Assembly: GCF_965641715.1 (NCBI RefSeq)
Contig: NZ_OZ282453.1
Origin: Escherichia coli
Lineage (GTDB): Bacteria > Pseudomonadota > Gammaproteobacteria > Enterobacterales > Enterobacteriaceae
DNA: 64,000 nucleotides
Strand: one strand, 5' to 3'
The notes below the pieces were generated by a model. The model saw only the letters and a program-made list of their open reading frames with translations. It was not told where the DNA came from and did no database searches. Below, piece by piece: positions 1,138-47,186 of the stretch. How positions within the stretch are numbered: position 1 is the first letter of the stretch; every line of letters starts with the position of its first letter. A program made the translations under genes and the position numbers.

Positions 1138-2378
1138 TGAAAATAAAACAGGCTCTGTTCACCGCTGGCTACTCCTCATTCTATTTCGATGACCAGCAGG
1201 CGATAAAAAACGGAGCGGGTCATGACGGCTTTTTTTATACCGGGGAGCCGGTAACACAGGGGTTTAACGCCGTTCGTCAGGCCGGGGAGTGCGTATCGGT
1301 ACAGTTGATTCTGGAAAACGGCGCGGTCGCCGTAGGTGACTGTACTGCCGTACAGTATTCCGGGGCAGGCGGTCGCGATCCACTGTTCCTCGCAGAGCAC
1401 TTTATTCCGTTCCTCAACGACCATATCAAGCCATTACTGGTAGGCCGCGATGTGGATGCTTTCCTGCCGAATGCCCGTTTCTTCGACAAACTGCGTATTG
1501 ACGGCAACTTGCTGCATACCGCCGTGCGCTACGGATTATCACAGGCGCTGCTTGATGCTACCGCGCTGGCAACCGGCCGTCTGAAAACTGAAGTGGTCTG
1601 TGATGAATGGCAGTTGCCACGCGTGGCGGAATCCATTCCATTATTTGGTCAGAGCGGCGACGATCGATATATCGCCGTCGATAAGATGATCCTTAAGGGC
1701 ATCGACGTGCTGCCCCATGCGCTGATTAATAACGTCGAAGAGAAGCTGGGCTTTAAAGGTGAAAAACTGCGCGAATATGTCCGCTGGTTGTCGGATCGCA
1801 TTCTAAGCAAGCGCACCAGCGCACGCTACCACCCTACCCTGCACATCGATGTATACGGCACTATCGGTCTGATCTTCGATATGGATCCGCTTCGCTGTGC
1901 GCAATACATCGCCAGCCTGGAAAAAGAAGCGCAAGGCCTGCCGCTCTACATCGAAGGGCCGGTCGATGCCGGTAACAAGCCCGATCAAATTCGCCTGCTG
2001 ACCGCGATTACCAAAGAGCTGACGCGCCTCGGTTCCGGCGTGAAAATTGTGGCCGATGAATGGTGTAACACCTACCAGGATATTGTTGATTTCACTGATG
2101 CTGCCAGTTGTCACATGGTGCAAATCAAAACCCCGGATCTGGGCAGTATTCACAACATCGTCGATGCGGTTCTTTACTGCAACAGCCACAGCATGGAAGC
2201 GTACCAGGGCGGCACCTGCAATGAAACTGATGTCAGTGCCCGCACCTGTGTCCACGTCGCCCTTGCCGCTCGCCCTATGCGTATGCTGGTAAAACCAGGG
2301 ATGGGCTTTGACGAAGGCCTCGATATTGTCTTCAACGAAATGAATCGTACTATCGCGCTGTTGCAGGCTAAGGATTAA
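1137..2378 (+). CDS. 3-methylaspartate ammonia-lyase (methylaspartase, enolase superfamily)
   Basis: 413 aa ORF; start ATG overlaps the glmE stop (TAATG); length and N-terminus match methylaspartase as recalled. Confidence 0.85.
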   Translation: MKIKQALFTAGYSSFYFDDQQAIKNGAGHDGFFYTGEPVTQGFNAVRQAGECVSVQLILENGAVAVGDCTAVQYSGAGGRDPLFLAEHFIPFLNDHIKPLLVGRDVDAFLPNARFFDKLRIDGNLLHTAVRYGLSQALLDATALATGRLKTEVVCDEWQLPRVAESIPLFGQSGDDRYIAVDKMILKGIDVLPHALINNVEEKLGFKGEKLREYVRWLSDRILSKRTSARYHPTLHIDVYGTIGLIFDMDPLRCAQYIASLEKEAQGLPLYIEGPVDAGNKPDQIRLLTAITKELTRLGSGVKIVADEWCNTYQDIVDFTDAASCHMVQIKTPDLGSIHNIVDAVLYCNSHSMEAYQGGTCNETDVSARTCVHVALAARPMRMLVKPGMGFDEGLDIVFNEMNRTIALLQAKD

Positions 2379-2381
2379 CAA

Positions 2382-3752
2382 ATGGCTCGTTCTTTTAAAG
2401 TCTTATCGCCAACGGCAATCCTCGGGTATGGATTCCCGGAAGAGAGCTTCCGCAAAGCGATGGCAGAATCGCCCGATCTGATCGCCGTTGATGCAGGCTC
2501 TTCCGATCCAGGCCCCCACTACCTCGGGGCAGGCAAACCGTTTACCGATCGCGCAGGGGTCAAGCGCGATCTGCGCTATATGATCACCGCAGGCGTGCAA
2601 AATAATATACCGGTGGTGATCGGAACGGCCGGCGGTTCTGGTGCCGCACCACACCTGGAGTGGTGCCGAGAAATAATTCATGAGATTGCCCAGGAAGAGC
2701 ACCTCTCGTTCTCGATGGCGTTGATCCCGGCAGACGTTGACAAAGCCATCGTCCACCAGGCGCTGGATAACGGCAAAATCACGGCGCTGGAGTTTGTCCC
2801 GCCGTTAACCCACGACGCGATTGACGAAAGTACGTATATCGTCGCGCAAATGGGCATCGAACCCTTCCAGCGGGCGCTGAAAGAAGGCGCGCAAGTGGTG
2901 CTGGGCGGGCGCGCTTACGACCCGGCCTGCTTTGCTGCGCTCCCGATCATGCAAGGCTTTGATGAAGGTCTGGCGCTGCATTGTGGGAAAATCCTTGAGT
3001 GCGCAGCAATCGCCGCAACGCCCGGCTCAGGCTCTGACTGTGCGATGGGCATCATTGATGACAACGGCTTTACGCTGAAGACATTTAATCCGAAGCGTAA
3101 ATTTACCGAAACGTCAGCAGCTGCACACACACTGTATGAGAAATCCGATCCCTACTTCCTGCCAGGACCTGGCGGCGTGTTGAACCTGAAAGGCTGCACA
3201 TTTAAAGCAGTCAATGACGGCGAAGTCTACGTCAGCGGTTCTAAGCATGAAGAAACGCCGTATGCCCTGAAACTGGAAGGTGCACGACGGGTGGGCTTCC
3301 GCTGTCTGACCATCGCCGGAACGCGCGACCCGATTATGATCGCCGGGATCGATAAAATCATCGATGAAGTCAAAACCAGCGTTTCGCGTAACCTGTCGCT
3401 CGACGATGACAGCATTCGCATCAATTTCCACCTGTACGGCAAAAACGGGGTGATGGGAGACCATGAACCGATGCAAACTGCCGGGCATGAGCTGGGGATT
3501 GTCCTTGATGTAGTTGCACCGACCCAGGAAATTGCCAACAGCGTTTGCTCGCTGGTGCGCTCTACCATGCTGCACTACGGCTATGAAAACCGCATCGCTA
3601 CCGCAGGTAATCTGGCGTTCCCGTTCTCCCCTTCTGATATCCAGGGCGGGCCGGTATACGAATTTTCCATATATCACCTGATTGAAGCCAACGACGCTCT
3701 GCGTTTTGATTTCCATATTGAACAGGTGACGCCAGAAGGAGTTCAGGCATGA
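2382..3752 (+). CDS. DUF1446 (AtuA-like) family protein, function unknown
   Basis: 456 aa ORF 3 nt after methylaspartase; family assignment from memory of AtuA-like proteins and needs an HMM check. Confidence 0.65.
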   Translation: MARSFKVLSPTAILGYGFPEESFRKAMAESPDLIAVDAGSSDPGPHYLGAGKPFTDRAGVKRDLRYMITAGVQNNIPVVIGTAGGSGAAPHLEWCREIIHEIAQEEHLSFSMALIPADVDKAIVHQALDNGKITALEFVPPLTHDAIDESTYIVAQMGIEPFQRALKEGAQVVLGGRAYDPACFAALPIMQGFDEGLALHCGKILECAAIAATPGSGSDCAMGIIDDNGFTLKTFNPKRKFTETSAAAHTLYEKSDPYFLPGPGGVLNLKGCTFKAVNDGEVYVSGSKHEETPYALKLEGARRVGFRCLTIAGTRDPIMIAGIDKIIDEVKTSVSRNLSLDDDSIRINFHLYGKNGVMGDHEPMQTAGHELGIVLDVVAPTQEIANSVCSLVRSTMLHYGYENRIATAGNLAFPFSPSDIQGGPVYEFSIYHLIEANDALRFDFHIEQVTPEGVQA

Positions 3753-4066
3753 AACAGTCAATTGTCTCACTGGCGCAAGTCATTCGTTCGAAAAATGCCG
3801 GACCTTACGAACTGGTTTTAGATATTTTATTTAAAACGAAAGAAAACTATGAGCGAGTTAAATCATCAGGGCAATTAACCCCAGAACTGATTGCGCGCTT
3901 ATATCATGTTGAACCAGACTTTATTCATCGTATTGTCTGGTTTGATCCTTCTAACGCAGTAAAAATCGTCATGCCACGAGATATTATCTCCGGGAATGTA
4001 GGTGACAATGATGTCTATGGTGCACAGCAACATGCACCTTTATTAAATATGAGTTTCGATTTGTAA
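3749..4066 (+). CDS. small DUF4387-like protein, usual partner of DUF1446
   Basis: 105 aa ORF whose start overlaps the upstream stop by 4 nt (ATGA), implying translational coupling. Confidence 0.55.
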   Translation: MKQSIVSLAQVIRSKNAGPYELVLDILFKTKENYERVKSSGQLTPELIARLYHVEPDFIHRIVWFDPSNAVKIVMPRDIISGNVGDNDVYGAQQHAPLLNMSFDL

Positions 4067-4149
4067 TAATCCGAATACTTTTAGCCAACTGACATCCCGT
4101 CACTTATTGCAGTTCAACACTTCAGCTATTTGTAAGGTTGTAATAGCAG

Positions 4150-4181
4150 GTAGATGCCTGAATCTCTATTCAGGCATCTAC
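4150..4181 (+). terminator. perfect 14-bp stem hairpin (gtagatgcctgaat-ctct-attcaggcatctac), attenuator or operator candidate
   Basis: Inverted repeat read directly in the sequence between the DUF4387 gene and the transporter gene; downstream tract is only moderately T-rich. Confidence 0.45.
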
Positions 4182-4205
4182 TTCTCCTGATTCTGATTTA
4201 TCGCC

Positions 4206-5507
4206 GTGCACCTGATGGAGGAAAAAATGAAGAAAATAAGTTTAACCACGATGATTCTTTTGGCGCTGGTACTTGGAATGATTATCGGCGTAGTGCTTAA
4301 TAACACTGTTTCACCGGAAACAGCAAAACTCTATGCGCAAGAAATATCGATATTCACGACGATTTTCTTACGACTGATAAAAATGATTATCGCTCCGTTA
4401 GTGGTCTCTACCCTGGTGGTAGGTATTGCTAAAATGGGCGATGCCAAAGCCCTTGGTCGTATTTTTTCTAAAACACTCTTTTTATTTATTTGCGCCTCAT
4501 TGCTGTCAATTGCCTTAGGCTTGATAACGGTAAATTTCTTCATGCCAGGCACAGGAATTAATTTTGTTGCACACGGTGCCGAAACCACAGGAGTGGTCGC
4601 GTCAGAACCCTTTACGCTAAAAGTATTTATTTCGCATGCTTTCCCCACCAGCATTGTCGATGCCATGGCGCACAATGAAATTTTGCAAATCGTGGTGTTC
4701 TCAATTTTCCTCGGCTGTAGCCTGACGGCGATTGGAGAGAAAGGCAGCGCCATCGTTCACGCCTTAGATTCGCTGGCACATGCCATGTTAAAGCTCACTG
4801 GCTACGTCATGCTCTTCGCTCCCCTGACCGTATTCGCTGCTATTTCAGCATTGATTGCTGAACGAGGACTGGCAGTTATGGTGAGCGCCGGGATCTTTAT
4901 GGGTGAATTTTATTTCACCATGTTATTACTTTGGGTGCTGCTTATCGGTCTGGCCATCGTTTATGTCGGCCCCTGCATCAGACGCCTGACCCGCGCCCTT
5001 TCGGAACCCGCCCTGCTGGCATTTACCACATCCAGTTCTGAAGCGGCTTTTCCGGGAACGCTTGAAAAACTGGAGCAATTTGGCGTTTCCCCCAAAATTG
5101 CCAGCTTTGTCTTACCCATTGGCTACTCATTTAATCTCGTTGGATCAATGGCCTACTGCTCCTTCGCCACAGTTTTCATCGCCCAGGCCTGCAATATCCA
5201 TTTATCCATCGGTGAGCAAATCACCATGCTGTTGATCCTGATGTTGACCTCGAAAGGAATGGCTGGCGTACCACGCGCCTCAATGGTGGTTATCGCCGCC
5301 ACGCTCAACCAGTTCAATATTCCGGAAGCGGGGCTGATCTTGCTGATGGGCGTTGATCCGTTCCTTGATATGGGGCGTTCCGCGACAAACGTCATGAGCA
5401 ACGCAATGGGCGCTGCGATGGTGAGTCGGTGGGAAGGCGAACATTTCGGCGAGGGCTGTCGGGGTAAAGCATTAAAACCCAATGAATCGAACGTTGCTCT
5501 GCCCTGA
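4206..5507 (+). CDS. dicarboxylate/amino acid:cation symporter (DAACS, GltP/DctA-like)
   Basis: 433 aa polytopic membrane protein with DAACS-like motifs (…FIAQ…, …GVPRAS…); start may be the internal ATG at 4227 (MKKISLT…). Confidence 0.8.
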   Translation: MHLMEEKMKKISLTTMILLALVLGMIIGVVLNNTVSPETAKLYAQEISIFTTIFLRLIKMIIAPLVVSTLVVGIAKMGDAKALGRIFSKTLFLFICASLLSIALGLITVNFFMPGTGINFVAHGAETTGVVASEPFTLKVFISHAFPTSIVDAMAHNEILQIVVFSIFLGCSLTAIGEKGSAIVHALDSLAHAMLKLTGYVMLFAPLTVFAAISALIAERGLAVMVSAGIFMGEFYFTMLLLWVLLIGLAIVYVGPCIRRLTRALSEPALLAFTTSSSEAAFPGTLEKLEQFGVSPKIASFVLPIGYSFNLVGSMAYCSFATVFIAQACNIHLSIGEQITMLLILMLTSKGMAGVPRASMVVIAATLNQFNIPEAGLILLMGVDPFLDMGRSATNVMSNAMGAAMVSRWEGEHFGEGCRGKALKPNESNVALP

Positions 5508-5614
5508 GGGGGATCTTAAGCAATCAGAAGCCAATGACTACGCATTTTTATAAGCCGGATCAAGAAGTTAGACGGCAATTAAGTAACACTAACGTTTAAG
5601 GTGAAAAGTGAAAT

Positions 5615-7267
5615 ATGTCCAAACCATTTATCTGGCAAGAACCGTTTCTACAAAATAAAGACGGTACAGAATATACATTAATTAGCGATCAACATATTAC
5701 AGTAACGGAATTAGACGGCGAAGAAGTGATAAAAATCGCTCCTGAAGCATTAACGCTGCTTGCCCGGCAGGCATTTTATGAAGCCTCTTTTTTCTTACGT
5801 TCCGCTCATTTGCAACAGGTCGCCAGCATTCTTAACGATCCGCAGGCCAGCAGTAATGATAAATACGTTGCGTTGCAGTTATTACGTAATGCTGAAGTCT
5901 CAGCAAAAGGGGTATTACCCAACTGTCAGGATACCGGCACCGCAACTATTATTGCCAGTAAAGGGCAACAGATATGGACCGGAGGTAACGACGCCGAAGC
6001 CTTAAGCAAAGGCATTTACACCACTTTTCAGGAAAATAATCTGCGCTTTTCACAAAATGCGCCGCTGGATATGTATACCGAAGTCAATACGCAAACCAAT
6101 CTCCCGGCGCAGATTGATATCTGCGCCGTCGCTGGTGATGAGTACCATTTCCTCTGTGTTAATAAAGGAGGCGGCTCTGCCAATAAAGCCGCGCTTTATC
6201 AGGAAACCAAATCCTTATTGCAACCAGAAAAACTGACCGCATTTTTAATCGAAAAAATGAAATCGCTGGGCACCGCTGCCTGCCCGCCTTACCACATCGC
6301 CTTTGTCGTCGGAGGGCTTTCAGCCGATCAAACCTTAAAAATTGCCAAGCTGGCCTCAACGAAATATTACGACAATTTGCCCACCAGCGGAAACGAGCAG
6401 GGACAAGCATTCCGTGATATTGAGCTGGAAAAAGCGTTGCTCGAGGCCAGTCAGCAATTTGGTATTGGTGCACAATTTGGGGGGAAATATTTCGCTCATG
6501 ATATTCGCGTCATTCGTCTGCCGCGTCACGGTGGCTCTTGCCCGATAGCTATGGCGCTCTCCTGTTCTGCCGATCGCAATATCAAAGCAAAAATTAACAA
6601 ACACGGTATCTGGCTGGAAAAACTCGAACACAATCCGGGGCAATATATTCCAGCCTCACTGCGGGAAGAAAATCACGCGCAACATGTACAACTGGATCTA
6701 AACCGTCCGTTGCGTGACGTGATGCTGGATCTCGCCAGATTACCGGTAGGCACCCGCGTGTCGTTAAGTGGTCCCATCGTAGTGGCGCGCGATATCGCCC
6801 ACGCCAAAATAAAAGCGCGGCTGGATAGCGGTGAATCGATGCCGGAGTACCTGAAGCATCATATTGTCTATTACGCTGGCCCGGCGAAAACACCGGAGAA
6901 CATGGCCTGCGGTTCACTGGGTCCAACTACGGGCGGTCGAATGGACGGTTATGTCGATACCTTCCAGGCGGCCGGCGGCAGTCTGGTGATGTTATCGAAA
7001 GGGAACCGCAGCCAGCAGGTCACCGATGCTTGTCACAAACATGGCGGCTTCAATCTGGGAAGTATTGGCGGTGCAGCTGCGTTACTGGCGCAAGAATATG
7101 TCAAAAGTCTGCGTTGCCTGGAATACCCGGAGCTGGGTATGGAAGCGGTGTGGATGATGGAAGTGGAAAATCTGCCCGCATTCATCCTGGTAGATGATAA
7201 AGGCAATAATTTCTTTAGTCTGTTTGAGCAGCAACACCGCTGCGCCAGTTGCCCTGCGGGACATTAA
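5615..7267 (+). CDS. fumD: class I (Fe-S) fumarate hydratase paralog, probable mesaconase/fumarase
   Basis: 550 aa, collinear with and highly similar to E. coli FumA as recalled; context with glutamate mutase and methylaspartase suggests mesaconate hydration. The symbol fumD is from memory of the O157:H7 literature. Confidence 0.8.
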
Positions 7268-7276
7268 GGAAAATGA

Positions 7277-7879
7277 ATGGAAGCGCGAATTTCAACTGAA
7301 CGGCATGTGCAGCGCCAACAGAAATTGAAGGAACAGGTCGATACGCGCGTCGCAGCGGCGATAGAGAAAAAAGGGATCTTGATTGTTTTCACCGGCAACG
7401 GCAAAGGGAAATCCACTGCCGCGTTTGGTACTGTGACGCGCGCGGTGGGTCATGGCAAAACGGTGGGGGTTGCGCAGTACATCAAGGGGCAATGGGACAA
7501 CGGCGAATACAACCTTCTCCAGCCGCTGGGGGTTGAGTTTCATATTATGGGAACCGGTTTTACCTGGGAGACACAGAACCGGCAAGCGGATATCGACGCG
7601 GCGAAAGAGGTCTGGTCGGAAAGCAAACGGATGCTGGCTGACAAGCGTTACGACTTAGTGGTGCTTGATGAGCTGACCTATATGCTGGCTTACCATTATC
7701 TGGATACCGAAGAAGTGATCGCTTCTCTGCAAAACCGCCCGGCACAACAAAGTGTCATTGTCACCGGACGCGGTTGCCACAGTCAGATATTAAAAATGGC
7801 AGATACGGTCAGCGAAATCCGCCCCGTCAAACATGCTTTTGATAACGGCATTCAGGCCCAGCCGGGTATCGACTGGTAA
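7277..7879 (+). CDS. ATP:cob(I)alamin adenosyltransferase (BtuR/CobA/CobO family)
   Basis: 200 aa with a P-loop (GNGKGKSTAAFG) typical of BtuR-type adenosyltransferases; fits the AdoCbl requirement of glutamate mutase. Confidence 0.8.
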   Translation: MEARISTERHVQRQQKLKEQVDTRVAAAIEKKGILIVFTGNGKGKSTAAFGTVTRAVGHGKTVGVAQYIKGQWDNGEYNLLQPLGVEFHIMGTGFTWETQNRQADIDAAKEVWSESKRMLADKRYDLVVLDELTYMLAYHYLDTEEVIASLQNRPAQQSVIVTGRGCHSQILKMADTVSEIRPVKHAFDNGIQAQPGIDW

Positions 7880-7882
7880 TAA

Positions 7883-7914
7883 CTGCGCCTGGCATCCCGC
7901 CAGGCGCAGGTTTT
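7883..7914. terminator. bidirectional intrinsic terminator between convergent genes
   Basis: 11-bp perfect stem (ctgcgcctggc / gccaggcgcag) followed by TTTT, sitting between the adenosyltransferase stop and the LysR stop. Confidence 0.55.
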
Positions 7915-8818
7915 ACATCTCCTGCGGTACGACCGATTTCGCCAGCAACCATTCACGAAATTGCTGCAAGTGCGGTGAGTCAGATTTCTCTTCCTGCCAC
8001 GTCATAATAAAACGATTACCGGTACGAATAGGCACATCACAGGGAATCACCATATCGCCACTATCCAAATCATGTTGAATAGCGAACCGTGGTAACAGCG
8101 CCACGCCGAGATTAGAGCGCACGGCGGCAATCAGCATTGAAAGCAAATCGAAACGTGGTCCGTTGTTGACCAGCGGACTACTAACGCCAGATAAAGCAAA
8201 CCACTCTTCCCAGCCAGTAATACGGGTGCTTTGATGCAGAAGTGGTAACTCAGTAAGCAGTTCTGCCACTGACAGTTTTTGATCGGACATTGCAAGCAAA
8301 CTGCCGCTGCATACCGGCAAAATCTCCTCATCAAAGAGATATTCTACTTCCGCCCAGGGTGCGCAAAAATTTTCGCGCATAATGACAGCATCGTACTCCC
8401 GATTAAGAAAATCGCCGTTATTAGCTAAAGAATGAATATTAACAATAATATCGGGATGTAACTTTGTGAATTCATGTAAATTTGGGATTAACCAGTGGGT
8501 ACTAAAAGTAGGATTAACGGCAAGTTCAATAACCTGAACCGTAGGCTGCCAGGTCATAATGGTATTGGTATCGCGTTCCAGCTTATTTAATGTTTCTTTT
8601 ACTATCCCCAGGTAATACTTCCCTTTATCATTAAGAAAAATGCGTTTTTTAGAGTGTGAAAATAACGGAGTACGTAAAAATTCCTCCAGCGCACTTACTT
8701 GTCTGAATACTGCACTTTGGGTTAACGCTAACTCCTCTGCCGCTCTGGTATAACTTTCATGACGTGCGACGACCTCAAAAGTCACCAGCAGTTCCGTTTT
8801 AGGTATTTTCCCTCGCAT
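7913..8818 (-). CDS. LysR-family transcriptional regulator
   Basis: 301 aa; N-terminal HTH (…FEVVARHESYTRAAEELALTQSAVFRQV…) typical of LysR-type regulators. Confidence 0.85.
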   Translation of the reverse strand: MRGKIPKTELLVTFEVVARHESYTRAAEELALTQSAVFRQVSALEEFLRTPLFSHSKKRIFLNDKGKYYLGIVKETLNKLERDTNTIMTWQPTVQVIELAVNPTFSTHWLIPNLHEFTKLHPDIIVNIHSLANNGDFLNREYDAVIMRENFCAPWAEVEYLFDEEILPVCSGSLLAMSDQKLSVAELLTELPLLHQSTRITGWEEWFALSGVSSPLVNNGPRFDLLSMLIAAVRSNLGVALLPRFAIQHDLDSGDMVIPCDVPIRTGNRFIMTWQEEKSDSPHLQQFREWLLAKSVVPQEM

Positions 8819-9484: not shown

Positions 9485-10354
9485 TTATTTCAGAACAGTT
9501 TTCAGTGCTTCACCGATATCCGCCAGGCTGCGAACGGTTTTCACGCCTGCGGCTTCCAGAGCAGCGAATTTCTCATCCGCAGTCCCTTTCCCACCGGCAA
9601 TGATGGCACCCGCGTGGCCCATACGTTTGCCTTTCGGCGCAGTCACACCAGCGATGTAACCCACAACTGGCTTGGTAACGTGCTCTTTGATGTACGCAGC
9701 TGCTTCTTCTTCAGCGCTACCGCCGATCTCACCGATCATCACGATCGCTTCGGTCTGCGGATCTTTTTCGAACATTTCAAGAATGTCGATAAAGTTAGAG
9801 CCAGGGATCGGGTCACCGCCGATACCGACACAGGTCGACTGACCGAAACCGTAATCCGTGGTCTGTTTAACCGCTTCATAGGTCAGTGTACCGGAACGGG
9901 AAACGATACCCACTTTACCCGGTTTGTGAATGTGACCCGGCTGAATACCGATTTTGCATTCACCCGGAGTGATAACGCCTGGGCAGTTCGGGCCGATCAT
10001 ACGAACGCCTGCTTCATCCAGCTTCACTTTCACAGTCAGCATATCCAGCGTCGGGATGCCTTCAGTGATGGTGATAATCAGTTTGATGCCTGCGTCGATG
10101 GCTTCCAGAATGGAGTCTTTGCAGAACGGTGCTGGTACGTAGATAACAGAAGCGGTAGCGCCAGTAGCAGCAACAGCTTCACGCACGGTGTTGAACACCG
10201 GCAGGCCGAGGTGGGTAGTACCGCCTTTACCTGGAGTTACGCCACCAACCATTTTGGTGCCGTATGCAATGGCCTGTTCAGAGTGGAAAGTCCCCTGGCT
10301 ACCGGTAAAGCCCTGGCAGATAACCTTGGTGTTTTTATCAATTAAAATGGACAT
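9485..10354 (-). CDS. sucD: succinyl-CoA synthetase alpha subunit
   Basis: 289 aa, [24 protein letters not shown]…. Confidence 0.97.
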
Positions 10355-11520
10355 TATTTCCCCTCCACTGCGGCAACAACCTGCTGAGCTGCATCCGTCA
10401 GACCTTTTGCTGCAATAATATTCAGGCCGCTGTCAGCCAGTTTCTTCGCGCCGAGTTCGGCGTTGTTACCTTCCAGACGTACCACGACCGGTACGTTAAC
10501 ACCCACTTCCGCTACCGCGCCGATGATACCGTCAGCGATCAGGTCGCAACGAACGATACCGCCGAAGATGTTAACCAGAACGGCTTTCACTTTGTCGTCA
10601 GAGAGAATGATTTTGAACGCTTCGGTTACACGTTCTTTGGTTGCGCCGCCGCCAACGTCAAGGAAGTTAGCTGGTTCGCCGCCGTGCAGTTTAACGATGT
10701 CCATCGTACCCATCGCCAGACCTGCGCCGTTAACCATACAACCGATGTTACCGTCCAGCGCAACGTAGTTCAGTTCCCACTGTGCAGCCTGTGCTTCACG
10801 CGGATCTTCCTGCGACTGGTCACGCATTTCGCGCAGATCAGGCTGGCGGAACAGGGCGTTGCCATCAGCGCCCAGTTTGCCGTCGAGGCAAATCAGATCA
10901 CCCTGTTTGGTGATGACCAGCGGGTTGATTTCGATCAGCGCCAGATCGCGTTCCAGGAAAATGGTCGCCAGGCCCATGAAGATTTTGGTGAACTGCTGAA
11001 CCAGTTTACCTTCCAGACCCAGTTTGAACGCCAGCTCGCGTCCCTGATACGGCATCGGGCCAGTCAGTGGATCAAGCGCAACTTTGTGGATCAGATGCGG
11101 AGTTTCTTCCGCCACTTTTTCGATTTCCACGCCGCCTTCGGTGGAGGCCATAAAGACCACGCGACGGGAACTACGGTCTACAACGGCACCGAGGTACAGC
11201 TCTTTAGCGATATCGGTCGCTGCTTCAACCAGAATCTGGTTAACCGGTTGGCCATTAGCATCTGTTTGATACGTTACCAGACGCTTGCCGAGCCAGTTTT
11301 CTGCAAAAGCACGGATGTCTTCTTTGCTGTTTACAACTTTCACACCGCCCGCTTTACCGCGGCCACCAGCGTGAACCTGACATTTCACTACCCACGGACC
11401 GGCACCGATTTTTGAAGCGGCTTCTTCTGCTTCGCGCGGAGTAGTACAGGCATAACCCACCGGTGCTGGTAAGCCATAGCGGGCAAACAGTTGTTTTGCC
11501 TGATATTCATGTAAGTTCAT
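10354..11520 (-). CDS. sucC: succinyl-CoA synthetase beta subunit
   Basis: 388 aa, [18 protein letters not shown]…; overlaps the sucD start by 1 nt. Confidence 0.97.
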
Positions 11521-11559: not shown

Positions 11560-11860
11560 CGTAGACCGAATATTTCGTATCGCTCCCGGGTATTGTCGGT
11601 CACCCGTAGGCCTGATAAGACGTGTAAGCGTCGCATCTGGCATCGCTTGTCGGATGCGGCGCGAGCGCCTTATCCGACCTACATCGGTGCTTCCCGTAGG
11701 CCTGATAAGACGTGTAAGCGTCGCATCAGACATCGCTTGTCGGATGCGGCGCGAGCGCCTTATCCGACCTACATTGGTGGTCCCGTAGGCCTGATAAGAC
11801 GCGTCAGCGTCGCATCAGGCTTCAATTGCCGGAGAAGGCGATAATGCCTTATCCGGTCTA
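11560..11860. repeat. BIME/REP array, three ~95-bp units
   Basis: Three near-identical units containing gcctgataagacg…gcgtcgcatc…cggatgcggcg…ccttatccgacctac palindromes in the sucB-sucC intergenic region. Confidence 0.85.
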
Positions 11861-11883
11861 CAGTGCAGGTGAAACTTAAACTA

Positions 11884-13101
11884 CTACACGTCCAGCAGCA
11901 GACGCGTCGGATCTTCCAGCAACTCTTTGATCGTTACCAGGAAGCCCACGGATTCGCGACCATCGATCAGACGGTGATCGTAGGACAGCGCCAGGTACAT
12001 CATCGGCAGGATCTCAACCTGACCATTCACAGCCATCGGACGATCTTTGATAGCGTGCATACCCAGAATTGCGCTCTGCGGCGGGTTGATGATCGGCGTA
12101 GACATCAGGGAACCGAACACACCACCGTTGGTGATGGTGAAGTTACCACCGGTCAGATCTTCAACCGTCAGCTTGCCGTCACGGCCTTTAACTGCCAGCT
12201 CTTTGATTTTCTTCTCGATGTCTGCCATGCCGAGGGTATCGACATCACGCAGTACCGGCGTCACCAGGCCGCGCGGCGTAGAAACCGCCATGCTGACGTC
12301 GAAATAGTTGTGGTAAACCACGTCATCGCCGTCGATAGAAGCATTCACTTCCGGGTAACGTTTCAGGGCTTCAACCACCGCTTTCACGTAGAAGGACATA
12401 AAGCCCAGACGGATGCCGTGGCGTTTTTCAAACGCTTCACCGTACTGCTTACGCAGATCCATAATCGGCTTCATGTTGACTTCGTTGAACGTGGTCAGCA
12501 TGGCGGTGGAGTTTTTCGCTTCCAGCAGACGCTCTGCCACACGCTTACGCAGGCGAGTCATCGGGACACGTTTTTCACTACGTGCAGCCAGAGCCGGTTG
12601 CGCCGCCGGAGCAGCCGCTGCCGGTGCAGACTCTTTCGCCGGGGATTTCGCCAGATGTTTTTCCACATCTTCACGGGTCAGACGACCACCCACACCGGTG
12701 CCTTTAATGGCGCTGGCGTCGAGGTTATGTTCAGCCAGCAAGCGACGGATCGCCGGGCTTAACGCATCGTTGTTTTGCTCTTCCAGAGACGCCTGCTGGC
12801 GTTGCGCCGGAGTGGACGCTTTCTCTTCAGATTTGGCGCTGGTTTCTTTACCGGCGCTGTTGCCTTCACGCAGGCGACCAAGGATCTGACGAGACGTTAC
12901 CGTTGTACCTTCATCTTTCAGAACCGCATCCAGAATGCCGTCTGCTGATGCCGGTACTTCCAGTACCACTTTGTCAGTTTCGATTTCTACCAGCACTTCA
13001 TCACGTACGACTGCGTCGCCGGGTTTTTTATGCCAGGTTGCGACGGTGGCATCGGCTACGGATTCAGGCAGGTCAGGGACCAGAATATCTACGCTACTCA
13101 T
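11884..13101 (-). CDS. sucB: 2-oxoglutarate dehydrogenase E2 (dihydrolipoyl succinyltransferase)
   Basis: 405 aa, [26 protein letters not shown]…. Confidence 0.97.
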
Positions 13102-13115
13102 TGTGTATCCTTTAT

Positions 13116-15917
13116 TTATTCGACGTTCAGCGCGTCATTAACCAGATCTTGTTGCTGTTTCTGGTGAACGGACATATACCCTACCGCCGGAGAGGCGGAG
13201 GCCGGGCGGCCTGCATAACGCAGAGAAGCCCCAAACGGAATCACTTCACGGAAATGATGCTGGCTGCAGTACCATGCGCCCTGGTTGAGCGGCTCTTCCT
13301 GGCACCAGACAAAATCCTTGACGTGAGCAAACTGCTGCAACACTTCCTGCATCGCTTTATGCGGGAACGGGTAGAGTTGCTCGATACGCACAATGGCGAC
13401 ATCGTGTTGATTGTTCTTACGACGTTGTTCCAGCAGGTCGTAATAAACCTTACCAGAACACATCACTACGCGCTTCACGCCCTTCGGATCAAGCTCGTCG
13501 ATTTCACCGATGGCTGGCAGGAAGGTGCCGTTCGCCAGTTCTTCGAGGCTGGAAACCGCCAGCGGATGACGCAGCAGGGATTTCGGCGACATCACGACCA
13601 GCGGACGACGCATCCCGCGCAGCGCCTGACGACGCAGCATGTGGTAAACCTGTGCCGGGGTAGACGGTACGCACACCTGCATGTTTTGCTCAGCACAAAG
13701 TTGCAGATAACGTTCCAGACGCGCGGAGGAGTGCTCCGGCCCCTGCCCTTCGTAACCGTGCGGCAGCAACATCACCAGACCACACATCCGGCCCCATTTC
13801 TGTTCGCCAGAGGAGATGAACTGGTCGATAACCACCTGCGCACCGTTGGCGAAGTCACCGAACTGCGCTTCCCAGATGGTCAGAGTGCGTGGTTCTGCGG
13901 TGGCATAACCGTATTCAAACGCCAGCACGGCTTCTTCAGACAGTACGGAGTCCCAGACGCGGAACGCGCCCTGCCCGTTATGGATGTGTTGCAGCGGCGT
14001 GTAAGTGGAACCGTTAGACTGGTTGTGGATCACCGCGTGGCGGTGGAAGAAGGTACCGCGACCGGAGTCTTCACCCGACAGGCGAACCGGAATGCCTTCG
14101 TCAACCAGCGTGGCGTAAGCGAGGTTTTCCGCGCCGCCCCAGTCGAACAGTTTCTCACCGGCAGCCATCGCCTGGCGATCGCCATAAATCTTGGCAACGC
14201 GAGACTGCATTTCAACCGCTTCCGGCACCGTACTGATGCGTTTAGCCAGTTCCTGCAGGCGCTTCATCTCAACTTTGTTCGGGTACTCTTCGTCCCATTC
14301 GTGGTTGAGATACGGCGACCAGGTGAAAGAGTGCATGTTCATCGGACGCCACTCTGCCACTACGCAATCGCCAGCATCCAGCGCATCGCGGTACAGGTTA
14401 ACCATCTCGGTGGCATCTTCCAGCGTCGCCACTTTTTCCTGCTCCAGCTTGTCAGCGTAGATTTTGCGCGGTGTCGGATGTTTTTTGATTTTCTGATACA
14501 TCAGCGGCTGGGTTGCGCTCGGCTCGTCGGCTTCGTTGTGGCCGTGACGGCGGTAGCACACCAGGTCGATGAAGACATCACGTTTAAAGGTGTTACGGAA
14601 ATCGAGCGCCAGACGGGTCACAAAGGCAACGGCTTCCGGATCATCCGCGTTAACGTGGAAAATCGGTGCCTGAACCATCTTACCGATATCAGTACAGTAC
14701 GGTGTAGAACGAGCATCCAGCGGATTAGAGGTGGTGAAACCAACCTGGTTGTTGATAACGATACGTACCGTACCGCCAACTTCATAACCACGCGCTTTCG
14801 ACATGTTCAGAGTTTCCTGAACCACGCCCTGCCCGGTCACTGCGGCGTCACCGTGGATGGTGATTGGCAGCACTTTGTTGCTGCTCGGCTCATCAAGTCT
14901 GTCCAGACGGGCACGAACAGAACCGATAACTACCGGGCTTACAATCTCAAGGTGAGACGGGTTAAACGCCAGCGCCAGGTGCACCAGGCCGCCATCGGTC
15001 TGGAAGTCAGACGAGAAGCCCATGTGGTATTTCACGTCACCCGTGCCGAGGTGTTCTTTATGTTTACCGGCAAACTCGTCGAACAAGTCTTGCGGTTTTT
15101 TACCCAGCACGTTCACCAGCACATTCAGACGACCACGGTGCGCCATCCCGAGAACCACTTCGCGGGTGCCGCTGTTGCCGGCATGGCGGATCATCTCTTT
15201 AAGCATCGGGATTAACGCGTCACCGCCTTCCAGCGAGAAGCGTTTTGCGCCAGGGAATTTTGCACCAAGGTAACGTTCAAGGCCTTCAGCGGCGGTCAGT
15301 TCGCTTAAGAAGCGTTTTTTCTCTTCGCTATTGAAAGTCGCGCGACCAGACTCGATACGCTGTTGGATCCAGCGTTTTTCTTCGGTGCTGGTAATGTGCA
15401 TATACTCGGCGCCAATCGGGCCGCAGTAGGTTTGCTTGAGAGCTTCCAGCAGGTCGCCAAGTTTCATGGTTTCTTTGCCGCTGGCAAATGAACCGACGTT
15501 GAAGGTCTCCTGGAAGTCTGCTTCGGTCAGATCGTGGAAAGACGGATCCAGATCGGCCACTTTATCTTGCTGCCACAGTCCCAGCGGATCGAGATTCGCA
15601 TGCTGGTGACCACGGAAGCGGTATGCGTTAATGAGCTGCAGGACTTTTACCTGCTTCACATTGGTGTCAGGGTCGGAGATCGTTGAAGAGTAACGTGAAG
15701 CGTCTTTCGCCAGGCGGCGGAAATATTCACGCGTTTGAGAGTGGAATTGATCCGGTTTGACTCCCGTACCAGGTAACTGCTGGAACGTCGAACGCCAGTT
15801 AGCGTCAACCGAGTCAGGATCGGTTAAGAAGTCTTCATAGAGCTGTTCTATCCAGCTCTGGTTTGCGCCAGAGAGGTAAGAAGAGTCCAACCAGGCTTTC
15901 AAAGCGCTGTTCTGCAT
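13116..15917 (-). CDS. sucA: 2-oxoglutarate dehydrogenase E1 component
   Basis: 933 aa, [31 protein letters not shown]…. Confidence 0.97.
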
Positions 15918-16094: not shown

Positions 16095-16217
16095 ACGCCT
16101 GATGCGCTGCGCTTATCAGGCCTACGGGTAATGACTTGTAGGCCGGATAAGGCGTTCACGCCGCATCCGGCACTGGTTGCCTGATGCGACGCTTGCGCGT
16201 CTTATCAGGCCTACGGT
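16095..16217. repeat. REP elements in the sdhB-sucA intergenic region
   Basis: gcctgatgcg…cttatcaggcctac and gccggataaggcg…gcatccggc palindromes. Confidence 0.8.
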
Positions 16218-16949: not shown

Positions 16950-18716
16950 TTAGTAAGTACGAATCTTCGGCGGGAATGCCGGGCGCAGTTTCGGTTCCAT
17001 GTTGACGCTTCGGCGCGTCATGGATTCCGACTCTGGCAGATACAGGGAGTGGCACAGCCAGTTTTCATCATCACGATCCGGGAAGTCGAAGCGGCTATGC
17101 GCGCCACGGCTTTCGGTACGGAAGTTGGCAGAAACAGCCGTTGCATACGCCGTTTCCATCAGGTTATCCAGTTCCAGGCACTCAACGCGCTGGGTGTTGA
17201 ACTCGCTGGAAGTGTCATCCAGACGGGCATTTTTCAGACGCTCGCGGATAACTTTCAACTGCTCAAGCCCTTTCGCCATCGCATCACCTTCACGGAAGAC
17301 CGAGAAGTTATGCTGCATACATTCTTGCAGCGCTTTACGAATCGCCACCGGATCTTCACCGTTACGATTATTGTTCCAGCGGTTCAGACGATCCAGAGAC
17401 GCTTCAACATCAGACTCGCTGGCATCGCGCAGTGCACCCTGCTCGGCGATAGACTCTTGCAGATGCAGACCTGCCGCACGACCAAAGACCACCAGGTCCA
17501 GCAGCGAGTTGCCGCCCAGACGGTTAGCACCGTGTACCGATACGCAGGCAATTTCACCTACCGCGAACAGCCCCGGAACAACCACATCTTCGCCTTTCTC
17601 ATTCACAGTCAGCGCCTGACCGGTCACTTTGGTCGGAATACCGCCCATCATGTAGTGACAGGTTGGGATAACCGGAATCGGCTCTTTCACCGGATCAACA
17701 TGAGCGAAGGTACGGGAAAGCTCCAGGATACCCGGCAGACGGGATTCGAGAACTTCTTTACCCAGGTGATCGAGTTTCAGTTTCGCGTGTGGCCCCCACG
17801 GACCATCACAGCCGCGACCTTCACGGATTTCGATCATGATGGAACGCGCCACCACATCACGGCCCGCCAGGTCTTTGGCGTTCGGCGCATAACGCTCCAT
17901 AAAGCGTTCGCCATGTTTGTTCAGCAGATAACCGCCTTCACCACGGCAACCTTCGGTGACCAGTACACCCGCACCGGCAATGCCGGTCGGGTGGAATTGC
18001 CACATTTCCATATCCTGCACCGGTACGCCTGCGCGGATAGCCATGCCGACGCCGTCGCCGGTGTTAATGTGGGCGTTAGTGGTAGACTGATAAATACGCC
18101 CTGCTCCGCCAGTCGCCAGCACGGTAGCGCGGGCTTTAAAATAAACCACTTCACCGGTTTCGATGCACAGTGCGGTACAACCCACCACCGCACCATCCTG
18201 GTTTTTCACCAGATCCAGCGCATACCACTCGGAGAAAATGGTGGTGTGGTTTTTCAGGTTCTGCTGATAAAGCGTGTGCAACAGTGCGTGACCGGTACGG
18301 TCAGCAGCCGCCGCGGTACGTGCCGCCTGCTCGCCGCCGAAGTTTTTCGACTGACCGCCAAACGGACGTTGATAGATACGACCATCATCGAGACGCGAGA
18401 ACGGCAGGCCCATGTGTTCGAGTTCCAGAATCGCTTCCGGCCCGGTTTTACACATATATTCAATCGCGTCCTGGTCACCGATATAGTCCGACCCTTTTAC
18501 GGTGTCGTACATATGCCATTCCCAGTTATCTTCATGGGTATTACCCAGCGCAACGGTAATGCCGCCTTGCGCAGAAACGGTATGGGAACGGGTCGGGAAG
18601 ACTTTAGAGAGCAGCGCACAGGTCTGGCCGCTCTGGGAAATTTGCAGCGCCGCGCGCATACCTGCGCCGCCGGCACCAATCACAACTGCATCAAATTCTC
18701 TGACTGGCAATTTCAT
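16950..18716 (-). CDS. sdhA: succinate dehydrogenase flavoprotein subunit
   Basis: Canonical start [19 protein letters not shown] taken; the ORF track adds four upstream codons. Confidence 0.95.
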
Positions 18717-19063
18717 CACACACCCCACACCACAACGAATCCATAAATCACGTAAACCACCAGTGCAACGACAATCACCAGTTGCAGCATCAGGCGCAAA
18801 GCCAGCGGTTTAACGTAGTCGGTCAACACCTGCCACATGCCGATCCAGGCATGGATCAAGATAGAAAACAGCGCCAGCAGGGTGAACACTTTGGTGAACG
18901 CAGAGGCGAAGAAACCGATCCAGACTTCATATGTCAGCTCGCCACTGGTGGCGAAAAAACCGACCATATAAATGATGTAGAGCGTCAGGACGATAGCGGT
19001 AGCGCGAACGAGGATGAAATCATGTACGCCATTGCGTCCTAATGCGGAGGCGTTGCTTACCAT
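18716..19063 (-). CDS. sdhD: succinate dehydrogenase membrane anchor subunit
   Basis: 115 aa, [21 protein letters not shown]…. Confidence 0.95.
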
Positions 19064-33559: not shown

Positions 33560-33675
33560 GATGCCTGATGCGACGCTTGACGCGTCTTATCAGGCCTACG
33601 TATTTCCTGCAATTTATTGAATTTGCACAAATTTGTAGGCTGGATAAGGCGTTCACGCCGCATCCGGCATCTGGG
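33560..33675. repeat. REP elements between dtpD and phr
   Basis: gcctgatgcgacgcttgacgcgtcttatcaggcctac and ggctggataaggcgttcacgccgcatccggc. Confidence 0.8.
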
Positions 33676-44005: not shown

Positions 44006-44288
44006 GGGTTGAAATGCCGGATGCGGCGTAAACGCCTTATCCAGCCTACTCATCGTCCCGTAGGCATGATAAGACGCGTCAGCGTCGCATCAGGCATGGC
44101 TCTGTGAATAACGTCGGCAAAAACTGGAAAAAGACCCCGCCCTCGCCATTTCATTACCGAAACCGGTATTGGGTATCGGTTTATGCTTTAGGGGCTGACT
44201 TGCCGGATGCGGCGTGAACGCCTTATCCAGCCTACTCATCGTCCCGTAGGCATGATAAGACGCGTCAGCGTCGCATCAGGCATTGGCA
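43927..44288. repeat. tandem direct duplication (~190-bp period, 2 copies) of the kdpE 3' end plus a REP pair
   Basis: Copy 1 at 43927-44098 and copy 2 at 44117-44288 are near-identical; each carries the last ~80 nt of kdpE followed by gccggatgcggcg…ccttatccagcctac and gcctgatgcgacgctgacgcgtcttatcatgcctac palindromes. Confidence 0.85.
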
Positions 44289-44304
44289 CTCATGGCTAAA
44301 TATT

Positions 44305-44849: not shown

Positions 44850-44885
<36 letters not shown>

Positions 44886-44966: not shown

Positions 44967-44974
44967 AAATGTGT

Positions 44975-46615
44975 TTACGCGTTTTTCAGAACTTCGCTAA
45001 CAATCTCAACCGCTTCTTTCTCAATCTGCTTGCGATGTTCTTCACCGAGGAAGCTTTCGCAGTAGATCTTATATGCGTCTTCCGTGCCTGACGGACGCGC
45101 GGCGAACCAGCCGTTGTCAGTCATCACTTTCAGACCGCCAATAGAAGCACCGTTGCCCGGAGCAGCTGTCAGGCGCGCGGTGATCGGGTCACCTGCCAGG
45201 GTGCTGGCGCTCACCATTTCCGGAGACAGCTTAGACAGCGCCGCTTTTTGTGCGGAAGTCGCAGCTGCCTGCAAACGGTTGTAGCTCGGCGCACCAAAGC
45301 GTTTTGCCAGTTCGTTGTAGTGTTCCTGCGGGTTCTTACCGGTGACAGCGGTGATTTCCGCCGCGAGCAGACACATGATGATGCCGTCTTTGTCGGTGGA
45401 CCACGGCGTGCCGTCGAAACGCAGGAAGGAAGCCCCTGCGCTCTCTTCGCCGCCAAAGCCGAAGCTGCCGTCGAACAGACCATCAACAAACCATTTGAAA
45501 CCTACCGGGACTTCTACCAGTTTACGGCCCAAGTCGTTGACCACACGGTCGATCATCGCAGATGAAACCAGCGTTTTACCGACGGCAACATCTTTGCCCC
45601 ACTGCGGACGATGCTGGAACAGGTAATTGATCGCCACCGCCAGGTAGTGGTTCGGATTCATCAAACCTGCCGGAGTGACGATACCGTGACGGTCATAATC
45701 CGGGTCGTTAGCAAACGCCAGATCGAACTTATCACGCAGTGCCAGCAGGCCTGCCATTGCACACTCAGAGGAGCAGTCCATACGGATCGCGCCGTCTTTA
45801 TCAAGGTGCATAAAGCGGAAGGTTTGATCGACCTGATCGTTAACGATAGTCAGGTTGAGGTTGTAATACTCGCCAATACGCTTCCAGTATTCGATACCGG
45901 AACCGCCCAGCGGATCAACGCCAAGCGTCAGGCCCGCTTTCTGAATCGCCGCCATATCAACGATATCGGCCAGCCCTTCCACGAACGGCTGCACCAGATC
46001 CTGCTCTTTCACATGACCGGATGCCATCGCTTCGTCGAGGGAGATACGCTTCACGCCTTTCAGGCCATCGGCCAGCAGTGCGTTGGCACGATCTTCCACC
46101 ACTTTAGTGACGTTGGTATCAGCCGGGCCACCATTTGGCGGATTGTACTTGATACCACCATCTTCCGGCGGGTTATGGGACGGTGTAATAACGATACCGT
46201 CTGCCAGCGGGCCACCTTTTTTATTGTGAACCAGGATGGCATTGGAAACGGCAGGCGTCGGGGTGAAGCCATTGTTTTCCTGCACAATAACATCTACGCC
46301 GTTCGCTGCCAGCACTTCCAGAACGGAAATAAATGCAGGTTCGGACAGGGCGTGAGTATCTTTACCCACATAGCAAGGGCCAGTGATGCCGTTTTTCGCA
46401 CGTTCTTCAGCAATTGCCTGAGCGATCGCCAGAATGTGCGGCTCGTTAAAGCTGTGGCGCGCTGCACTGCCACGGTGACCGGAAGTACCGAATTTCACCG
46501 CGTGCTCCGCATTCCCTGCTTCTGGTTTCAGTACATAATATTGCGCCGTCAGTTGGGCGACGTTAATCAAATCACTCTGTTGTGCAGGTTGGCCTGCACG
46601 ATTGTGGATTGCCAT
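44975..46615 (-). CDS. pgm: phosphoglucomutase
   Basis: 546 aa from [22 protein letters not shown]…; active-site TSGHRG motif (read as GTSGHRGS) present. Confidence 0.95.
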
Positions 46616-46640
46616 TGCTTTGTCCTTTGTCTGCAACGTT

Positions 46641-47186
46641 TTAGATAGTTCCGCAAACCTTCTCAATCAATTCCGCCGGGAATTGCATCGACTGCATGAT
46701 GTGTTCGATCATGCTGCATTTACGGCCGGTGTTGGTGTTGGTGATCACCCAATACGGCGTGCCTGGCACATGTTTCGGCTTGGTCTGATTACCATTTTTC
46801 AGCAGCGTTTGTTCATCTGCCGCAAAGTAAACGCGTGTACGACCGTGCAACGATTCCGTTGCTTCGGCAAACGCCTGGGCGTCAAGAGAATATAGTGTAG
46901 ACAACAGCAGCATAAAGCGATTGACCGCTCGCTTTTGCTCTGCGTATTCATCCGAAAGCAGAAGTTCACGCATTGCGCGAACCTTGTCTTTAATCGTTTT
47001 GACCGGCTTCGCTTCGACGATAGCAGGTGACGCAACGCGAACCTCTTTCGTCACCGGAGCAGCAGGCTGTGATGCGGCGGAAAATTTCAACATACGCCGT
47101 AAAATGTCGGATGCGCTCTCGCCGATATGCTTAGTGTGGCTGGCAATATAGCTGTAGAGTTCATCATCAACTTCAATCGTTTTCAT
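46641..47186 (-). CDS. seqA: replication initiation negative regulator SeqA
   Basis: 181 aa from [33 protein letters not shown]…. Confidence 0.95.

Follow-up and report, generated by a model that had tools for sequence, protein, structure and literature searches.

Within the window, by which we mean the whole stretch of 64,000 nucleotides of Escherichia coli DNA that was analysed, the strand opposite sucA and sucB, sdhA and pgm carries open reading frames of 770, 565 and 345 codons, and the question these frames raise is whether they are genes or a consequence of how the genes on the other strand are encoded. The initial annotation had reported all three as long stop-free frames and had taken them most likely for by-products of codon bias in highly expressed genes; an ORF listing of the plus strand contains each of them (Table 1, in which the sense genes are named as RefSeq annotates them in E. 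coli genomes nearly identical to this one). We put the probability at roughly 95% that they are non-coding "shadow" ORFs, a side effect of the avoidance of rare codons in codon-biased sense genes.

Table 1. Antisense frames, their sense genes and natural premature stops, in positions of the window
Feature	Coordinates	Strand	Remarks
Antisense ORF, 770 codons, TTG start	12903..15215	+	opposite sucB/sucA
770-codon ORF, sucB part	12903-13101	+	opposite sucB 5' end, non-opposite frame
770-codon ORF, sucA part	13116-15215	+	codon-for-codon opposite sucA codons 235-934
Stop-to-stop open frame opposite sucA, 835 codons	12708..15215	+	
Stop upstream of the 835-codon frame	12705-12707	+	
Terminal TAA of the sucA-opposite frame	15213-15215	+	reverse complement of sucA Leu codon 235 (TTA)
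Antisense ORF, 565 codons, GTG start	17049..18746	+	codon-opposite to sdhA
Stop-to-stop open frame opposite sdhA, 608 codons	16920-18746	+	
Antisense ORF, 345 codons, ATG start	45611..46648	+	codon-opposite to pgm
Stop-to-stop open frame opposite pgm, 360 codons	45566-46648	+	
sucB (odhB), E2 component, 405 aa	11884..13101	-	first 66 codons overlapped by the 770-codon ORF
sucA, 2-oxoglutarate dehydrogenase E1, 933 aa	13116..15917	-	Nc 39.6
sdhA, succinate dehydrogenase flavoprotein, 588 aa	16950..18716	-	Nc 36.8
pgm, phosphoglucomutase, 546 aa	44975..46615	-	Nc 40.3
Natural premature stop, AGA to TGA	14706..14708	+	synonymous TCT to TCA, sucA Ser404
Natural premature stop, CGA to TGA	14316..14318	+	synonymous TCG to TCA, sucA Ser534
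Natural premature stop, AGA to TGA	13938..13940	+	synonymous TCT to TCA, sucA Ser660

In an antisense frame that lies codon for codon opposite a gene, the stops TAA, TAG and TGA can arise only where the gene has the Leu codons TTA or CTA or the Ser codon TCA, whose reverse complements they are. We find that all three ORFs have this relation (frame offset 0) to sucA, sdhA and pgm, respectively, and that their ends fall on a sense TTA, CTA or TCA codon. The seven TTA or TCA codons of sucA stand at codons 31, 48, 74, 78, 143, 204 and 235, and none of TTA, CTA and TCA occurs in codons 236-933, a run of 698 codons. None occurs anywhere in sdhA, and pgm has two TCA codons (351 and 509), the first of which, with a CTA just upstream of the pgm start, bounds the open frame. 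The mirror frame thus stays open because the sense genes almost never use these three codons. We propose that sucA, sdhA and pgm, by drawing on CTG for Leu and on TCC, TCT or AGC for Ser, and almost never on TTA, CTA or TCA, would leave their mirror frames open over hundreds of codons. The same mirroring would account for the residues of the antisense translations, as common sense codons would be read as Gln (CAG from CTG), as Arg (CGC, CGT and CGG from GCG, ACG and CCG) and as His (CAC and CAT from GTG and ATG). The initial annotation had described the translations as rich in Arg, His and Gln, which holds for the sucA-opposite ORF (12.1, 6.8 and 6.4%, respectively, against 5.2, 2.5 and 3.9% in the window's real genes) and holds less well for the sdhA- and pgm-opposite ORFs, where Arg and Gln are still high.

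The effect extends to other genes in the window. Across 42 window genes the density of TTA, CTA and TCA rises with Nc (Spearman rho 0.79, P = 7e-10) and is inversely related to the fraction of the gene that lies under an open antisense run (rho -0.82), and sucD, sucC, sucB and glnS show the effect as well. The longest open run of the window genes averages 180 codons in the codon-opposite frame versus 59-102 in the remaining four alternative frames. The window-wide density is 19.8 per 1000 codons, relative to which sdhA, pgm and sucA are depleted. Strong codon bias (low Nc) serves here as a stand-in for high expression of the three central-metabolism genes, which is presumed, and we infer that the bias itself is due to translational selection on expression. 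A very unlikely alternative is that base composition alone, in the form of GC-rich third positions produced by mutational bias, keeps the frames open without any codon selection linked to expression. Among the matches listed, antisense stops in sucA and sdhA do track GC3 across species, with 2-4 stops and open runs of up to 899 codons in high-GC3 Aeromonas and 40-66 stops in AT-rich taxa; in sucA the counts rise as GC3 falls. Within this one window (GC 0.45-0.58), however, genes that share a single mutational background range from 0 to 53 TTA, CTA or TCA codons per 1000, a density that follows gene-specific bias, and sdhA has a GC3 of only ~0.59-0.60 yet lacks these codons altogether.

How surprising the open frames are depends on the codon usage that is assumed. 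Under window-wide codon usage the probabilities are 3.5e-6 for sucA codons 236-933, 2.6e-5 for sdhA and 3.5e-3 for pgm, and the first of these rules out pure chance under average usage, the non-randomness belonging to the sense genes. When gene-specific usage is applied, openness is mostly no longer beyond chance: the pgm frame becomes unremarkable (P = 0.57) and sdhA has no such codon to place. For sucA a moderate excess over these simple codon-usage nulls is left, as synonymous shuffling within the gene puts all seven codons inside the first 235 with P = 0.001, and frequencies taken from the rest of the operon and gltA, under which about four such codons would be expected, give P = 0.017. 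The first quarter of sucA is less well adapted (major-codon fraction 0.505, against 0.582 elsewhere; P = 0.05) and in relatives TTA, CTA and TCA are 1.35-1.7 times denser there, which explains the clustering of the seven codons only partly. We considered whether the clustering might reflect selection for the antisense frame and rejected this reading on the grounds, detailed below, that alleles creating stops are common in nature, that none of the other species sampled keeps the frame open and that constraint is absent.

It is nonetheless the clustering in sucA (P = 0.001 to 0.017), together with the extreme length of the 770-codon frame, that favors regarding these frames as genuine young antisense overlapping genes, the 770-codon frame coding in whole or in part and being limited to some E. 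coli lineages, comparable to the overlapping genes described from EHEC and P. aeruginosa. We judge this to be most improbable. The frame opposite sucA is open in 9 of the 13 E. coli sequences examined, which would suit such a gene, but premature stops interrupt it in 4 of 12 evenly sampled strains, all of them arising from synonymous changes of a Ser codon from TCT or TCG to TCA. Among 5,426 complete E. coli genomes the TCA allele is found at Ser404 in at least 313, O157:H7 among them, at Ser534 in at least 288 and at Ser660 in at least 260. Premature stops reach an appreciable frequency among natural strains of the species, the whole O157:H7-type group included. The sdhA-opposite frame is interrupted in 3 of 11 strains, and the bounds of the pgm-opposite ORF shift between strains to give open runs of 270, 350 or 508 codons. 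The comparison with other species drew on 80 listed loci, which do not include the nearest sister taxa (E. albertii, E. fergusonii, Salmonella and Citrobacter). Among the matches listed, sucA codons 236-933 contain one antisense stop or more in each of the 78 other species, the closest genera having 2-6, and the sdhA-opposite frame is broken in all other species but one (a comparison from which locus L090 was left out, its sdhA being cut at the end of the locus).

Nor does the antisense translation carry a mark of selection. The initial annotation had proposed dN/dS across strains as a check, and within E. coli we find an apparent ratio of 2.3 for the frame antisense to sucA, compared with 0.004 for sucA itself, with no sign of purifying selection on the former. 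The 94 sites that vary in the sucA overlap include 92 that are synonymous in sucA, and 84 alter the antisense residue. Against Pseudocitrobacter, the closest outgroup used among the matches listed, the ratios are 2.6 and 0.05, and the antisense translation is 69% identical where SucA is 95% identical. Synonymous diversity in sucA is not reduced by the overlap, dS being 0.064-0.069 in the overlapped part and 0.026 in the non-overlapped 5' part. Variants that create stops (3 of 88) show no significant deficit relative to the other synonymous variants ending in A (22 of 339; P = 0.44), a comparison of low power with only three events. Neither purifying selection on the antisense product nor its conservation, by which a functional overlapping gene would be recognized, was found in these comparisons.

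Signals of expression are likewise weak. The lack of convincing ribosome-binding sites noted earlier is borne out by the energies of pairing with rRNA, which are -3.0 kcal/mol at the TTG at 12903, +0.2 at the first ATG of that frame (12948), -2.6 at 17049 and -1.1 at 45611, against a median of -5.8 kcal/mol for 21 real genes. A consensus scan, to whose reach weak or leaderless expression does not belong, found one promoter-like site where shuffled sequences would give 1.2, and CAI on the window's own codon table is 0.54-0.60 for the antisense ORFs and 0.61-0.80 for real genes. At the curated threshold Pfam assigns no family to the sucA- and pgm-antisense translations, and the sdhA-antisense translation has only a sub-threshold chance match (E = 0.15; 11.5 bits, with the cutoff at 25). 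An Rfam search of the whole window places no RNA family within the three antisense ORFs. The Rfam matches that the window does contain are REP-type naRNA4 elements in flanking spacers and ES036 elsewhere. Among 5.8 billion database proteins, nine small and sporadic clusters match at 31-71% identity, none of them named or from E. coli; such matches are what mirrored conservation of sucA would be expected to yield, and they do not help to choose among the hypotheses. Gene callers almost never call the sucA-opposite frame, and the RefSeq annotation of 12 genomes has nothing on the strand opposite.

In favor of an overlapping gene there are claims of translated antisense ORFs from both E. coli and Pseudomonas (PMC9927249, PMC8850804). 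Our literature search, however, turned up no work reporting that the strand opposite sucA, sdhA or pgm is translated: the three genes do not figure among the candidates that PMC9927249 gives in its supplements and are unmentioned in the text of bioRxiv 2020.11.18.388249, and searching for sucA antisense together with ribosome profiling found only papers on SdhX and sRNA networks. We infer that the three frames are not translated. It is scarcely credible that, in E. coli lineages with the frame open, K-12 among them, low-level transcription and translation of some of the 770-codon frame yields a very young and dispensable overlapping protein, selection for which would have helped to clear the final three quarters of sucA of TTA, CTA and TCA. 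The reading of the frames as shadow ORFs, and with it the initial annotation's claim of a by-product of codon bias, draws its support from the frame offset of 0, the link between codon density and Nc, the non-conservation of openness, the absence of constraint and the weakness of the expression signals.

Comparison with systems described previously leads to the same place. The antisense genes reported to be translated, namely pop opposite ompA, ano and laoB in EHEC and olg1 and olg2 in P. aeruginosa, rest on RNA-seq and ribosome profiling, on promoters or start sites and partly also on phenotypes or signs of purifying selection (PMC7103648, PMC5960689, PMC5810103, PMC8850804). The frames described here resemble them in being embedded antisense in an annotated gene, but differ in their weak sequence-level signals, their lack of constraint and their common natural knock-out alleles. 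A closer parallel is provided by the long ORFs opposite dnaK, once annotated as an NAD-specific glutamate dehydrogenase (Pfam PF10712; bioRxiv 10.1101/724807). In both cases a very long frame -1 ORF lies opposite a conserved, codon-biased gene, "homologues" exist only through conservation of the sense gene, and gene callers can mistake the ORF for a gene; unlike the dnaK-opposite ORFs, the sucA, sdhA and pgm shadows have no Pfam family at the curated threshold and only the nine unnamed relatives. Such mis-calling is illustrated by a metagenome contig (L101) in which a gene caller gave shadow "proteins" of 653 and 549 aa in place of sucA and sdhA. For annotation it is of value to recognize that shadow frames may be mis-called where damage or fragmentation has affected the true gene, and that a frame codon-opposite to a codon-biased gene is not shown to be coding by ORF length alone, even at 770-835 codons.

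Lastly, non-stop or shadow antisense ORFs that arise in frame -1 from codon bias have been described in Mir et al. 2012 (PMC3454372) and in bioRxiv 10.1101/724807, and Merino 1994 and Silke 1997 are cited for them in PMC3454372. All three frames in the window share the traits that define this class, in that they are codon-opposite to strongly biased sense genes, can meet stops only opposite TTA, CTA and TCA and are bounded by such rare codons, scale with the bias, and show neither conservation of, nor selection for, their openness. Nothing essential sets them apart, although the sucA case is unusually long, at 835 codons from stop to stop, and goes somewhat beyond a homogeneous within-gene null (P ~0.001). 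The long codon-opposite frames are thus an already known phenomenon whose biological weight here is small, and they make a clear worked example of how codon bias gives rise to such frames as a statistical by-product.

The segment is E. coli chromosome, with gene names taken from RefSeq annotation of near-identical genomes. In a megablast search of 5,426 complete genomes of the species, the interval of its longest antisense ORF matches sucA/odhB in 5,425 (95-99.7% identity). The three antisense ORFs opposite sucA, sdhA and pgm fully match their description in the initial annotation (see table), and from stop to stop they span 835, 608 and 360 codons, respectively. All three lie at frame offset 0 relative to the sense codons, and by the genetic code a TAA, TAG or TGA in this codon-opposite frame can arise only as the reverse complement of a sense TTA, CTA or TCA. 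There are no such codons among the 588 of sdhA, two in pgm (TCA at positions 351 and 509) and seven in sucA (positions 31, 48, 74, 78, 143, 204 and 235), with TTA235 being the complement of the TAA that terminates the 770-codon ORF. The initial 66 codons of that ORF cross the 14-base sucB-sucA spacer and overlap the 5' end of sucB; their frame relation to sucB differs from that to sucA.

Antisense ORFs and neighbouring features of the window
Feature	Coordinates	Strand	Remark
sdhCDAB-sucABCD operon		-	
gltA		+	
kdp, pgm, seqA, glnS			beyond the gltA/sdh-suc region
sucA	13116-15917	-	lower 5' synonymous diversity (codons 1-234)
ORF opposite sucA and 5' end of sucB	12903-15215	+	770 aa, TTG start
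ORF opposite sdhA	17049-18746	+	565 aa
ORF opposite pgm	45611-46648	+	345 aa
Further shadow ORF opposite sucD	9614-10345		
Further shadow ORF opposite sucC	10684-11415		
Further shadow ORF opposite sucB	11863-12762		
Further shadow ORF opposite kdpB	38838-39713		
Further shadow ORF opposite glnS	52976-53818		
Further shadow ORFs opposite methylaspartate-cluster genes	343-1113, 3114-3770		
Second ORF opposite sdhA	16999-17619	+	206 aa, not codon-opposite
naRNA4 match (Rfam)	16141-16211	+	REP-type, CssrE
naRNA4 matches (Rfam)	11609-11679, 11699-11769	-	REP-type, CssrE
ES036 match (Rfam)	33592-33634	-	CssrF sRNA, between dtpD and phrB
Cluster adjoining sucD	1-8818		
kdpE-pgm spacer	44006-44974		
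Block between glnS and the 3' end of nagE	54302-63281		about 9 kb

If codons were used as they are on average in the window ((TTA+CTA)/Leu = 0.138, TCA/Ser = 0.098), the chance of staying free of antisense stops would be 3.5e-6 over sucA codons 236-933, 2.6e-5 over sdhA and 3.5e-3 over pgm codons 1-350. The open frames are non-random, and the non-randomness lies with the sense genes. In a comparison of 42 window genes, TTA, CTA and TCA together account for 0 to 53 of every 1000 codons. This density rises with the effective number of codons (Spearman 0.79, P = 7e-10) and correlates inversely with the fraction of the gene lying under an open codon-opposite run (rho -0.82). The longest open run averages 180 codons in the codon-opposite frame versus 59-102 in the other four alternative frames. 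The strongest codon bias in the window is found in sucD, sucB, sdhA, glnS, gltA, sucA, pgm and sucC, and the shadow run spans about 64-100% of each of these genes except gltA (163 of 427 codons). Once each gene's own codon content is taken into account, the pgm run no longer stands out (P = 0.57), and the sdhA frame is open as a matter of course.

We note that the window holds further shadow ORFs of 218-299 aa. Those opposite sucD, sucC, sucB, kdpB and glnS face genes with long codon-opposite open runs (286-353 codons), and the ORFs themselves are not necessarily in that frame. The second ORF opposite sdhA occupies an open run of 220 codons, among the two longest of its frame class in the window, and is not explained by avoidance of TTA, CTA and TCA.

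For sucA there is a moderate residual beyond gene-specific codon content. All seven codons fall within the first quarter of the gene (P about 0.001 by synonymous shuffling), and about four would be expected in the remaining 698 codons at the Leu/Ser frequencies of sucBCD, sdhA and gltA, where there are none (P = 0.017). Part of this clustering reflects a less codon-adapted 5' quarter: its major-codon fraction is 0.505 versus 0.582 elsewhere (P = 0.05), and in 78 relatives, among the matches listed, the density of TTA, CTA and TCA over codons 1-235 is 1.35-1.7 times that in the remainder. What remains is compatible with the picking of an extreme case, and we found no independent signs of selection behind it in species conservation, variation within E. 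coli or constraint. That the last 698 sucA codons are so completely devoid of these codons in most E. coli is the sole mildly unusual point.

Across strains the antisense frame is without purifying selection. Among E. coli sequences the overlap has 94 variable sites, of which 92 leave SucA unchanged and 84 alter the antisense residue. Over the same bases, sucA has a Nei-Gojobori dN/dS of 0.004 within E. coli and of 0.05 against Pseudocitrobacter, and the antisense frame has one of 2.3 and 2.6, respectively; in the Pseudocitrobacter comparison identity is 95% for SucA and 69% for the antisense translation. Such values are expected of an unselected frame that faces a gene under strong constraint (bioRxiv 10.1101/724807). 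Constraint on the antisense product should lower the synonymous divergence of sucA in the overlap. In 13 E. coli sequences no such drop was found; dS is about 2.5 times higher in the overlap (0.064-0.069, codons 236-933) than in the non-overlapped 5' part (0.026, codons 1-234), a contrast that could stem from recombination history or from tighter constraint on synonymous sites around the 5' end and the internal promoter region. Stop-creating synonymous variants (3 of 88 eligible Leu/Ser codons) were not significantly rarer than A-ending synonymous variants of other codon families (22 of 339; P = 0.44), in a comparison of low power.

Nor is the open frame conserved. In 12 E. coli genomes sampled at even steps along an identity ranking, 10 of which share an identical SucA protein accession, four strains carry premature antisense stops opposite sucA, all from synonymous serine changes: TCT660TCA (site 13938), TCG534TCA (14316) and TCT404TCA (14706). 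One strain carries the first two together. Searches with 33-mers seeding only on these three stop alleles, which give lower bounds, place them in at least 260, 288 and 313 of 5,426 complete genomes, respectively, with O157:H7 among the carriers of the 14706 allele. The sdhA antisense frame is broken in 3 of 11 usable strains, and the pgm run is 270, 350 or 508 codons long depending on the strain, with TCA351 and CTA271 variably present. A one-genome-per-species scan yielded at least 80 loci with sucA; they extend beyond Enterobacterales to Vibrio, Aeromonas and Alteromonadales. Among the matches listed, all 78 complete sucA genes have at least one antisense stop in the region homologous to codons 236-933, from 2-6 in the closest genera (91-95% SucA identity) up to 48 in AT-rich taxa; comparably long runs occur only in high-GC3 genomes, Serratia silvae and Shimwellia, and end at positions other than that in E. 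coli. The sdhA antisense frame is interrupted, among the matches listed, in every other species but Aeromonas salmonicida (GC3 0.74).

The initial annotation saw no convincing ribosome-binding sites. Anti-Shine-Dalgarno duplex energies at the first starts are -3.0, +0.2, -2.6 and -1.1 kcal/mol, compared with a real-gene median of -5.8 (n=21) and a regional background of -2.4. Between 12300 and 15400 there is no excess of promoter-like sites (1 found versus 1.2 expected from shuffles). Measured against codon usage in the window itself, codon adaptation of the shadow ORFs is 0.54-0.60, lower than in any of 17 real genes (0.61-0.80). The reported richness in Arg, His and Gln is borne out by composition for the sucA shadow translation, and reflects the complementing of common sense codons (CTG to CAG; GCG/ACG/CCG to CGC/CGT/CGG; GTG/ATG to CAC/CAT).

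Several other features of the window vary between strains. The naRNA4 matches lie in the sdhB-sucA and sucB-sucC spacers, whose lengths differ among E. coli strains (200-550 bp, and 93, 261, 274 or 365 bp, respectively), suggesting that REP elements are gained and lost inside the operon. The block after glnS encodes a DeoR regulator, PdxA-like dehydrogenase, SBD_N/NBD_C kinase, Fe-alcohol dehydrogenase, DHDPS-family enzyme, TerC, BNR_2 (sialidase-like) protein and CitMHS transporter; it looks like a strain-variable carbohydrate/acid-sugar utilisation island and is absent from strain ET350, where nagE directly follows glnS. Compared with ET350, the kdpE-pgm spacer has about 800 bp more, and it holds a repeat present in about 32 copies per E. 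coli genome; only 246 genomes share the full arrangement, and in other strains potE adjoins pgm at this site. The cluster adjoining sucD (methylaspartate mutase, methylaspartate ammonia-lyase, AtuA-family protein, dicarboxylate symporter, class I fumarate hydratase, cobO and a LysR-type regulator) has the look of an accessory island for the glutamate/mesaconate pathway.

Database searches returned no Pfam family at the curated threshold for the three antisense translations, no Rfam family within the three ORFs and no RefSeq annotation on the strand opposite sucA in 12 E. coli genomes. Among 5.8 billion proteins, the sucA shadow translation resembles only 9 small unnamed clusters (31-71% identity), none with E. 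coli members. The best match sits on a metagenome contig (ENA ERZ28631384) where the gene caller passed over sucA and sdhA in favour of shadow genes of 653 and 549 aa (3001-4962 and 6855-7962); the contig's sucA ORF is cut to 868 aa, probably by assembly error or frameshift, and the shadow calls are a mis-call and no evidence for a gene.

The initial observation is confirmed, and its interpretation of the ORFs as by-products of codon bias is supported by the relation of TTA/CTA/TCA density to the effective number of codons, the frame offset of 0 and the lack of constraint on the antisense frame. That lineages with an open sucA frame translate a young, dispensable product from it at a low level seems to us extremely improbable. 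The phenomenon has been described before and is of little interest: the ORFs opposite sucA, sdhA and pgm are classical frame -1 shadow, or non-stop, ORFs (Mir et al., PMC3454372), and the TTA/CTA/TCA formula applied here is also given in bioRxiv 10.1101/724807, which concludes that negative selection does not act on shadow ORFs, including the dnaK-opposite 'glutamate dehydrogenase' family PF10712. The antisense genes reported as translated in EHEC and Pseudomonas are, in contrast, based on expression data and partly on purifying selection; the ORFs described here show no such constraint.
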